NCBI RefSeq assembly: GCF_053078305.1
Contig: NZ_CP166879.1
Strand: one strand, 5' to 3'
Length of the DNA stretch: 64,000 nt
In this document: in pieces, positions 52,521-53,336 of the stretch
Layout: each line of letters starts with the position of its first letter
How positions within the stretch are numbered: position 1 is the stretch's first letter
Made by a program: the position numbers and the translations under genes
Notes under the pieces: generated by a model
What the model was told of the DNA's origin: nothing
Database searches by the model: none
Seen by the model: the letters and a program-made list of their open reading frames with translations, nothing else

Positions 52521-52550
52521 TTTTTTCGTAGTTTTTCGTAGTTTTTCGTA
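52521..52550. repeat. Three tandem 10-bp repeats (GTTTTTCGTA)
   Basis: ttttttcgta gtttttcgta gtttttcgta; related TTTCGTAG palindrome at 61195-61211. Confidence 0.85.
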
Positions 52551-52647
52551 AGGAGAAAGAGCGGCGCGTATGCACCGCTAAGGAGTTTATTTTCATGACT
52601 TATGCAGCTTTCAATCTTAGCACCGCCGTAGCTGGTGGACAAGGCTA

Positions 52648-52875
52648 TCAGCCAGGCGGTCGGTTTTTAGTGGCTTTTAACCGCCGTGGGTATTTCTCGA
52701 CAAAATCTTCAAGGGCAAATTTTTCTGGTGGCACTAAGCGCGGCGCTGGTGGTGGTATTTTTGTTCTGGTTAGTTCTTCCTCAAGTCTGGCGCAGGCTTC
52801 TAACTGCCTTTGCCGGATGATTTCATCATCTTGCGTTTGCGTGTCTTGTATTGGTGATAGTGTGTTGTTGGTCAT
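52648..52875 (-). CDS. Hypothetical protein
   Basis: 75-aa ORF; coding strand ambiguous (antisense 464-aa ORF also present). Confidence 0.3.
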   Translation of the reverse strand: MTNNTLSPIQDTQTQDDEIIRQRQLEACARLEEELTRTKIPPPAPRLVPPEKFALEDFVEKYPRRLKATKNRPPG

Positions 52876-52932
52876 GATACTGCCCTGTAAAGCAATGCGC
52901 CGGAGTACCTCACGCCACGGCGCTGATAGTGA

Positions 52933-53238
52933 TTATTCTGATTCTTGGGTCTTGCGACGCTGGAGTTCTTCGCGTGCAACGGTGACAAGTTGCCCGATTT
53001 CTTCCGCTGCTTTGATGCCGATTTGTTCGACCTTAGCCAGAGCATCCAGTGAAGACACAAGGGGATTTTCTCCGCTGCCTTCTGCCTGGCGGCGGGCGAT
53101 TTCACCGCGCATGGCGGTTACTATGAATCCGGCGTTGCTTTCACCGTCCAGTTTTACGGATTCCATGCCTTCAATAACATCATGCGGGATCCGAGCTGTC
53201 AGTGATTGTGATTTTGCGTTTTTTGAACCTGTAGCCAT
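52933..53238 (-). CDS. Putative repressor (possible ribbon-helix-helix)
   Basis: ORF 52933-53253 (TTG); likely ATG 53238 with RBS gagagga; divergent from rightward operon across a repeat-rich region. Confidence 0.4.
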   Translation of the reverse strand: MATGSKNAKSQSLTARIPHDVIEGMESVKLDGESNAGFIVTAMRGEIARRQAEGSGENPLVSSLDALAKVEQIGIKAAEEIGQLVTVAREELQRRKTQESE

Positions 53239-53259
53239 CTGTAATCCTCTCAATGAAAG

Positions 53260-53336
53260 TGTAAGACAATATACACATAAAAAGTCTTACATAAAAGCAT
53301 TGACATGTAAGCCACCTATAAATAAAGTTACTTACA
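53260..53336. promoter_or_regulatory. Divergent promoter/operator region of the satellite
   Basis: Inverted repeat TGTAAGAC (53260-53267) / GTCTTACA (53284-53291) plus further TGTAAG/CTTACA half-sites. Confidence 0.45.

Follow-up and report, generated by a model that had tools for sequence, protein, structure and literature searches.

A predicted YlcI/YnfO-family repressor and a P4-type RNA immunity cassette in the switch region of a phage satellite

The stretch of 64,000 nucleotides analyzed here (contig NZ_CP166879.1 of assembly GCF_053078305.1; hereafter the window) carries an 11.6-kb integrated element at 49980-61608, with a perfect 21-nt direct repeat, GTGTATTGCAATGTGTATTGC, at both of its ends (49980-50000 and 61588-61608). 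The element is a phage satellite of the kind represented by phage-inducible chromosomal islands (PICIs) and phage P4, as it combines an integrase and attachment (att) repeats with an AlpA-family regulator, replication genes, partial packaging genes and cos. The question raised by its switch region is which factors control this element and at which sites. In a preceding reading made from the sequence alone, a small repressor with TGTAAG/CTTACA operators was proposed, together with a second regulator or structural factor acting both on three tandem repeats at 52521-52550 and on a palindrome at 61195-61211. The first of these proposals was supported by the present analysis, since the protein is modelled with a fold of the ribbon-helix-helix (RHH) type, the half-sites bracket both predicted promoters, and in 11 loci the operators vary in step with the strand of the protein that is predicted to read the DNA. 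The second proposal was not supported, and the protein repressor turned out to be only one layer of the switch, because an RNA immunity cassette precedes the replication genes.

The gene of the predicted repressor (52933-53238, minus strand, read 53238->52933; 101 aa), the TGTAAG/CTTACA inverted repeat and the further half-sites were all found as described by the sequence-only reading. Four TGTAAG half-sites (53260, 53286, 53306, and 53331) are located within 77 bp, which is far from chance because such a cluster is expected about 0.03 times. The motif search over the entire window thus confirmed the clustering of the half-sites, but neither TGTAAG (24 observed vs. 25.3 expected) nor TTTCGTA, the core proposed for the second regulator (12 vs. 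8.3), is enriched window-wide. A promoter scan detected a strong rightward promoter among the half-sites, TTGACA-17-TAAAGT (53300-53328, plus strand, 10/12 matches), which is the only strong plus-strand site across 51500-54500, keeps the position of its -35 element in relatives and is the positional analogue of the P4 promoter PLE. The half-sites form two inverted repeats. The first, TGTAAGAC-N16-GTCTTACA (53260-53291, with arms at 53260-53267 and 53284-53291), brackets the predicted leftward -10 element (TATATT, minus strand, 53273->53268), and the second, TGTAAG-N19-CTTACA (53306-53336, with arms at 53306-53311 and 53331-53336), brackets the rightward -10 element, beginning right behind the -35 element and finishing at the expected transcription start. 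Two points weigh against this assignment: the leftward promoter has a poor -35 element and was not called by the promoter scan, and every promoter and operator named here is a prediction.

The 101-aa product matches the YlcI/YnfO N-terminal model of NCBIfam (NF041551) over residues 9-50 with 71.1 bits (cutoff 30). No Pfam domain and no functional PHROG annotation could be assigned to the protein, and no function of the YlcI/YnfO family is given in Pfam, PHROGs or the searchable literature. An AlphaFold2 model, built on 30 homologues and with a mean predicted local distance difference test (pLDDT) score of 77.5, consists of an extended segment, helices at residues 19-28 and 35-52 and a long C-terminal helix at 59-100. 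It thereby shows the RHH topology of an N-terminal beta-strand followed by two helices within about 45 residues, and its closest structural matches are RHH antitoxins. The Pfam family PSK_trans_fac was matched by 22 of 30 members, though only below the threshold (best E = 0.00098, below cutoff). The profile search of the PDB with the protein returned nothing relevant, the Foldseek search of the monomer model against the PDB nothing significant, and hhalign against P22 Mnt aligned 13 columns (strand only) with a probability of 1%. On the basis of the model, the protein is predicted to be an RHH DNA-binding protein, with weak support at the sequence level. A literature search for an RHH repressor in PICIs gave nothing usable.

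The decisive part of the case for a repressor/operator pair is comparative. For this, 11 loci from E. coli, Klebsiella, Xenorhabdus, and Yersinia were compared, of which the relative L005 contributes two modules. The offsets of the boxes from the start codon are fixed in these loci (+22, about +46, +68, and about +95), whereas the sequence of the boxes depends on the allele and varies in step with residues 11-17 of the protein, with some of the matches linking different genera. The strand KSQSLTARIP, covering the region of residues 11-17, accompanies the box TGTAAGAC in the window, in E. coli L001 and in Klebsiella L062; these three loci have KSQSLTARIPHDV and the boxes TGTAAGAC, GTCTTACA, TGTAAG, and CTTACA in common, although the spacers of L062 have diverged. 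The strand KSQLTTVRVP is found with a box of the GTGTGTTTCA type in E. coli L007 and Xenorhabdus L063, and six further strand sequences are found with six further boxes at the same positions in L006, L008, L009, L064, and the two modules of L005. This allele-specific tracking of residues 11-17 implies heteroimmune repressor/operator types. The YlcI-like protein and the boxes are, as judged from this covariation, a repressor/operator specificity pair, whose physical binding we infer.

The boxes might instead be recognized by another factor, such as AlpA, the integrase or a repressor of the helper phage, with the small protein being antitoxin-like or an anti-repressor. The RHH antitoxins among the closest structural matches would fit this explanation, as would a second small gene behind the ylcI-like gene and the fact that operator binding by the YlcI-like protein is a deduction. 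This second gene of the leftward operon (Orf75, 52648-52875, minus strand, 75 aa) has homologues behind the YlcI-like genes in L001, L005, L009, and L060 and gave no match in Pfam, NCBIfam or PHROGs, and in searches of the same three databases no toxin-like partner was detected. Furthermore, the boxes track residues 11-17 and not the int/alpA type: they are identical in the window and L001 despite different int and alpA genes and differ among the window, L006, and L007 despite a common int-alpA pair. Recognition of the boxes by another factor is therefore regarded as very unlikely, and the YlcI-like protein is retained as their reader.

The sequence-only reading had described the repressor gene as divergent from a rightward replication operon. 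The divergent orientation was confirmed, but the rightward unit is not simply a replication operon; it is an RNA immunity cassette of the P4/P1 type that precedes the replication genes. The search with Rfam identified an IsrK-family RNA element (RF01394) at 53558-53634 (66 bits, gathering score 50) and a full-length C4 antisense RNA of the P4 CI / P1 C4 family (RF01695) at 53656-53743 (77.6 bits, gathering score 45), both on the plus strand. These are followed by a kil/icd-like gene of 63 aa (53798-53989, plus strand), which has a GAGGAGG Shine-Dalgarno (SD) sequence before its start. The order of the rightward transcript, i.e., IsrK-like element, C4 RNA, kil/icd-like gene and then replication genes, is the immI layout of P4 and P1, and the same IsrK to C4 order was found by Rfam matches in phage P4 itself. 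Furthermore, P1-like, SfV, and Stx phages contain immI-type regions with homology to the DNA at 53558-53850. Because of the Rfam matches to C4 and IsrK, the P4 order and the immI homology, an RNA immunity layer is assigned to the switch. As to target sequences complementary to the C4 RNA and flanking it in the same transcript, the c4-a1b1 model reached 21.2 bits at 53545-53597, which is under its gathering score of 46.7, and only one exact 8-nt complement to the C4 RNA was found.

A Pfam match to Phage_ASH, covering residues 318-411 of an open reading frame (ORF) and positions 53546-53827 of the window, coincides with the IsrK and C4 RNA genes. This match is the translation of two RNA genes, and the DNA concerned is RNA-coding. 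In relatives, such stretches are labelled as 'ash family protein' pseudogenes by the Prokaryotic Genome Annotation Pipeline (PGAP).

The ORF in question is of interest in its own right. It comprises 464 codons on the plus strand (52595-53989), is preceded by the SD sequence AAGGAG (52580-52585) 9 nt before its ATG, and runs antisense through both leftward genes and then through the operators, the IsrK element and the C4 RNA, before it ends in the nested, in-frame kil/icd-like gene (ATG at 53798). PHROG 29966 is matched here with its positions 125-187 of 188. The P4 genome contains an equivalent ORF (8812->8168) that spans the P4 matches to IsrK and C4 and that we take to be eta/kil. Translation of P4 eta, starting from the upstream late promoter PLL, reportedly prevents the immunity-specific termination. 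In both cases, a short kil/icd-like first gene after the C4 RNA is nested in a longer ORF starting upstream. The icd-like frame is open for 714-1458 nt upstream in all 10 loci tested (10/10), despite unrelated operator and repressor alleles, and the comparison indicates that the nested eta/kil arrangement of P4 is conserved far beyond P4. Some doubt arises from L001, where broken pseudogenes are annotated on the plus strand, although the frame is nonetheless open there, and from the consideration that an antisense frame over a coding gene can stay open without selection. A bypass function by analogy to P4 eta is given an even chance.

From these elements, a lysogeny/induction switch with a protein layer, an RNA layer, an eta-like bypass and a decamer entry point can be put together. 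The YlcI-like protein would repress the rightward promoter and autoregulate its own leftward promoter, with RHH dimers sitting on the TGTAAG(AC) boxes and linked through the C-terminal helix in the manner of P22 Mnt. The processed RNA would block the translation of the first gene and cause premature termination, as suggested by the P4/P1 immI layout. Transcription from upstream, coupled to translation of the eta-like ORF, would carry the RNA polymerase through the immunity terminator, by analogy to P4 eta, and would at the same time run antisense to the repressor operon. The upstream entry point may be activated by a protein bound to the tandem repeats at 52521-52550, either helper-encoded or a Cox/Xis/AlpA-type protein of the satellite. 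The repressor/operator pair and the RNA cassette are held with high confidence, and the explanation as a whole is considered reasonably probable.

The three tandem repeats of this entry point are decamers of the form (T/G)TTTTTCGTA on the plus strand, which stop 45 nt short of the eta-like ATG. Tandem Repeats Finder reported a period of 10 with 3.3 copies at 52518-52550 and the units TTTTTTCGTA, GTTTTTCGTA, and GTTTTTCGTA, so that the three repeats given in the sequence-only reading are present, but the first unit is one base off the GTTTTTCGTA stated there for all of them. Decamers were found in just one other of 5,426 complete E. coli genomes and on one metagenome contig. The only two independent relatives with an array are L001 (E. 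coli) and L060 (a metagenome contig), and both have the core GTTGTTCG. The search of viral contigs with a degenerate decamer pattern gave 50 matches, almost all of them unrelated coding repeats (L014 was checked), and the only relevant ones, L033 and L034, have the same sequence as the window. The exact flank pattern had no matches in species-representative genomes.

With three repeats in a phase of 10 bp, a conserved core and a 2-nt spacer that is free in L001 and L060, the decamers have the shape of a direct-repeat binding array of the Cox/Xis/AlpA type. L001 and L060 differ at 1 of 30 array positions vs. 18% in the flanks (P = 0.018), and the change lies in the 2-nt spacer and not in the 8-nt core. 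Between the window and L001 the proportion is inverse, with 6 of 30 array positions vs. 6.7% of the flanks being different (P = 0.013) and the same T/G change in all three units. This pattern fits a constrained binding array with a change of specificity, though slippage could also homogenize the units. By analogy to P4, the decamers are a candidate activator site for an entry point insensitive to immunity, a proposal made with low confidence. Several observations weigh against it: the scan detected no sigma-70-like promoter at the decamers or behind them, the known independent arrays number only three, and the concerted T/G change could be explained by replication slippage. In addition, the core does not track the AlpA type, since L001 and L060 have the same core GTTGTTCG with different AlpA proteins, and L006 and L007 carry the AlpA of the window but no array.

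Several binders or functions were considered for the decamers and discarded. AlpA as a simple binder is contradicted by the combination of one core with two AlpA proteins in L001 and L060 and by the lack of TTTCGTA in L006 and L007, which have the int-alpA-bro module of the window. The YlcI-like protein and Orf75 are almost identical in the window and L001, where the cores are different, and L005 has Orf75 without an array. A role as replication iterons is unlikely because a separate iteron-like array (AAAAGTGGGC, 56376-56566) directly follows the rep gene.

The decamers might also be a functionless minisatellite, generated by slippage during replication of the 3' untranslated spacer that separates the leftward operon from a neighboring small-RNA promoter. 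This would agree with the occurrence of the array in only one other complete E. coli genome and one metagenome contig, with relatives such as L008 and L009 that lack the array within the same surrounding architecture, with the near identity of the three units in the window, as after recent slippage, and with the scan, which detected no promoter nearby. It is at odds with the far better conservation of the array than of its flanks between L001 and L060, with the additional TTGTTC arrays in 10-bp phase that L001 has in front of alpA and of its capsid operon, and with functional-looking tandem decamers at the equivalent place in P4. We regard a functionless array as rather doubtful.

The TTGTTC arrays were noticed in relatives located at the roxA/phoQ site. 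Five units are found there between int and alpA (L001 11340-11400 and the equivalents in L004 and L005), an array at the decamer site in L001 only (12175-12205), and further arrays upstream of the capsid operon in L001 (17022-17050) and L005; a TTGTTC-like sequence is also present near attR in these relatives. Together, they look like the regulon of one direct-repeat binding protein.

On the minus strand, the decamers are located between a terminator-like hairpin with a weak T run at the 3' side of the leftward operon (52560-52579, minus strand) and the promoter of a candidate small RNA. The latter is about 80 nt in size (52345-52431, minus strand) and has TGATATAAT as its extended -10 element, a stem-loop on the 5' side and, at 52377-52350, a strong terminator. 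Its folding z-score is -3.1 and no Rfam match was found. The piece is conserved among 352 complete E. coli genomes, and its changes in L009 look compensatory. In relatives, it lies antisense to the upstream portion of the eta-like frame.

This neighborhood suggests that the decamers could act as RNA, either on the plus strand as a U-rich leader or translational enhancer of the eta-like ORF or on the minus strand, in the 3' untranslated region of the repressor operon and ahead of the candidate small RNA, as an A-rich, ARN-like site for Hfq or an RNase. The position of the decamers 45 nt upstream of a strong SD sequence and ATG, their place between the weak (52579-52560) and the strong (52377-52350) terminator hairpin and the well-folded small RNA just downstream would agree with such a function. 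However, the 10-bp phase, the conserved 8-nt core and the free 2-nt spacer are more typical of DNA-binding arrays, which makes a function at the RNA level improbable. The decamers are kept as a candidate site for an activator.

The second half of the two-site proposal concerns the palindrome CTACGAAATTTTCGTAG at 61195-61211. As had been reported in the sequence-only reading, it is perfect, with arms of 8 nt around a central T; alternatively, it can be read as CTACGAA-ATT-TTCGTAG, i.e., a 7-bp stem with an ATT triloop. The direct repeats said to flank it are real, but they are longer than the 19 bp given and amount to 45 nt with 73% identity (61123-61167 and 61236-61280), with a third unit at 61088. 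They belong to an array of repeat units on the plus strand (61088-61285, unit starts at 61088, 61131, and 61244), each of which consists of a box TGATATTYYCG..AA, a triloop hairpin with a 5-bp stem and a ..CGGAA tail. The unit stems vary in a compensatory way: 89% of the cells are paired, 4 of 5 pairs are changed on both sides and none of 500 shuffles reaches the score, with the caveat that related loci do not supply independent units. In its form and its ATT loop, the palindrome matches several of the unit hairpins, while its upstream box is degenerate and offset. Because it has the form of these variable hairpins, its stem sequence is probably arbitrary, and the TTTCGTA in the stem would be incidental if only the structure matters. 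The palindrome is assigned to this hairpin-unit array at the right end, which is unrelated to the decamers.

One protein that recognizes the TTTCGTA core at both sites would link the switch with the satellite's right end. The longest string common to decamers and palindrome is the 12-mer TTTTCGTAGTTT; a common string of at least 12 nt was reached in 32 of 1,000 Markov shuffles of the whole element, which is borderline, and in 3 of 1,000 shuffles with intergenic composition. TTTTCG occurs 19 times in the satellite vs. 10.7 +/- 3.4 expected and forms three plus-strand clusters of three, namely at the decamers, beside cosN (59875-59921) and at the right end (61136-61249). The two features are nevertheless inherited independently. 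The palindrome is kept in L004 (exact) and L005 (one mismatch), both without decamers; it is absent from L001, whose decamers have the other core, and L006 and L007, with the int-alpA-bro module of the window, contain neither feature; this comparison covers right ends other than that of L060. Moreover, a single binding mode is unlikely to serve both direct repeats and an inverted repeat whose spacing differs, and the palindrome looks like the triloop hairpins with variable stems in the right-end units. The idea of one regulator or structural factor at both sites is accordingly not supported, and a single protein recognizing the shared core has only a slim chance. The mild TTTTCG excess in three clusters keeps a broader version alive, which is likewise hardly probable.

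The palindrome lies in a right-end region of about 430 bp, of which 61195-61510 is common to elements with different integrases, so that an integrase arm site is ruled out for it. The repeats specific to the integrase, TGTGTATTGCAA, adjoin the att core. Attributions of the palindrome to cosN or to an attachment-site arm were both dropped in view of the cosN copies at 59854 and 60723, the position of these repeats and the sharing of the region across integrase types.

Further features were observed around the right end. The TTGCAA-containing repeats TGTGTATTGCAA are present at both att sites (49979-50034 and 61588-61612), and a looser form is located upstream of the capsid operon (57655-57695). 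The right-end unit array comes after a conserved ORF of 93 aa (PHROG 1561) and is also found at the right ends of L004, L005, L006, and L007. A palindrome with 16-nt arms (AATCTCGATATGGGGA/TCCCCATATCGACATT, 61474-61505) is kept in all relatives with any integrase type, and a second conserved palindrome, GGTCATNATGACC, at about 61300-61320 has one mismatch in the window.

The gene order of the element is int, alpA, Bro-N, switch region, DUF4222, RepA-family helicase, single-stranded DNA-binding protein (SSB), and capsid/packaging genes. The tyrosine integrase gene is located at 50051-51292 and the AlpA-family gene at 51294-51551, and the packaging genes encode a lambda-type major capsid protein E, a decoration protein D and a Nu1-like small terminase (terS). 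The lambda cosN core is present twice in the satellite, at 59854-59870 (plus strand) and 60723-60739 (minus strand), and both copies are identical to the cos of the surrounding prophage at 46184-46200. They are inverted, flank the Nu1-like terS gene and belong to a 72-nt inverted repeat; the same pair was found in the O157:H7 element L004 and a single copy in L006 and L007. Directly 3' of the RepA-family helicase gene, an iteron-like array, AAAAAGTGGGC, with three spaced copies and internal repeats (56374-56566), is probably the origin of the satellite.

The integration site of the satellite lies within the portal gene of a DLP12-like lambdoid prophage. Prophage terminase genes are located to its left (49021-49902), and the C-terminal part of the portal gene and an S49 protease gene to its right (61629-62462). 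E. coli GZEC065 and EC93 are annotated with the same portal-gene insertion, and 59 genomes carry the same int-alpA-bro module. The relative L008 is located in a prophage gene for the large terminase. Satellites integrating within prophages are mentioned in PMC10085698.

The comparative data give the YlcI/YnfO family a testable role as an allele-specific RHH repressor on the promoter that feeds a P4-type RNA immunity cassette. If this role is correct, the coexistence of related satellites in one genome would be explained, and immunity types could be read directly from the sequence. A wider reading, offered tentatively and placed somewhat short of even, is that YlcI/YnfO proteins are the master immunity repressors of a large enterobacterial group of PICI/P4-like satellites with many heteroimmune allele/operator types. 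They would act together with the P4-type RNA immunity and with the eta-like antisense ORF, which, transcribed from upstream helper-responsive decamers, would override the RNA terminator and silence the repressor gene. With this reading, a repressor layer would be added to the AlpA-only picture of PICI induction in Gram-negative bacteria.

Among the known systems, the PICIs and capsid-forming PICIs (cf-PICIs) of E. coli (EcCICFT073, EcCIEDL933) share the int-alpA pair at the left end with the satellite, and the relatives L001 and L005 carry the full capsid/terminase set of cf-PICIs. The induction of PICIs and cf-PICIs requires alpA (10.1101/2022.09.08.507074); the control is described in this preprint through AlpA, with no repressor mentioned. 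The satellite of the window differs from cf-PICIs in its divergent repressor/operator pair and P4-type RNA immunity and in its lambda-type capsid protein E, decoration protein D, and Nu1-like terS instead of the HK97-type set.

The repressor itself can be compared to Mnt and Arc of phage P22. Common to them are a small RHH domain at the N-terminus, predicted in the case of the YlcI-like protein, a helix behind it that is suited to oligomerization, and symmetric operators that overlap divergent promoters; the corresponding helix of Mnt serves in tetramerization. In contrast, there is no significant sequence similarity, and the half-sites of the window are 24-25 bp apart from center to center and not adjacent.

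In the immI region of P1/P7 (c4 - icd - ant) and in the antirepressor loci of SfV and Stx phages, the C4 RNA is likewise followed by an icd-like first gene, within the homologous DNA at 53558-53850, whereas replication genes and no ant gene follow in the window. None of the immI-type phage matches listed carries an annotation for a divergent RHH repressor whose operators are allele-specific.

The immunity region of phage P4 is similar in its matches to the IsrK family and C4/CI, which are located downstream of a promoter and inside a long ORF ending in a kil/icd-like gene. P4 also has three tandem decamers (9176-9205, annotated as 'ori type 2 repeats') upstream of vis and PLL. However, vis, an AlpA-family gene in operon direction, is located between PLL and PLE in P4, where no protein repressor is annotated at PLE, whereas the window has a divergent RHH repressor operon and four operator boxes on the PLE-like promoter. 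Replication and packaging also differ, with a RepA-family helicase and lambda-type capsid and terS genes in the window vs. the alpha primase and sid/psu in P4. The decamers of P4 are of the GCTTTAAGTG type and unrelated in sequence to GTTTTTCGTA of the window. They are said to be the targets of the Cox protein of the helper, an excisionase/activator that binds tandem direct repeats. The decamers of the window resemble these P2 Cox boxes at PLL as three direct repeats in a 10-bp phase upstream of an immunity-insensitive entry point; apart from the unrelated sequence, they differ in that the likely helper is lambdoid and not P2-like and in that the core does not track the AlpA type. Taken together, the switch involves no categorically new biology and combines known modules: RNA immunity of the P4/P1 type, a divergent allele-specific RHH repressor, and a conserved eta-like ORF.

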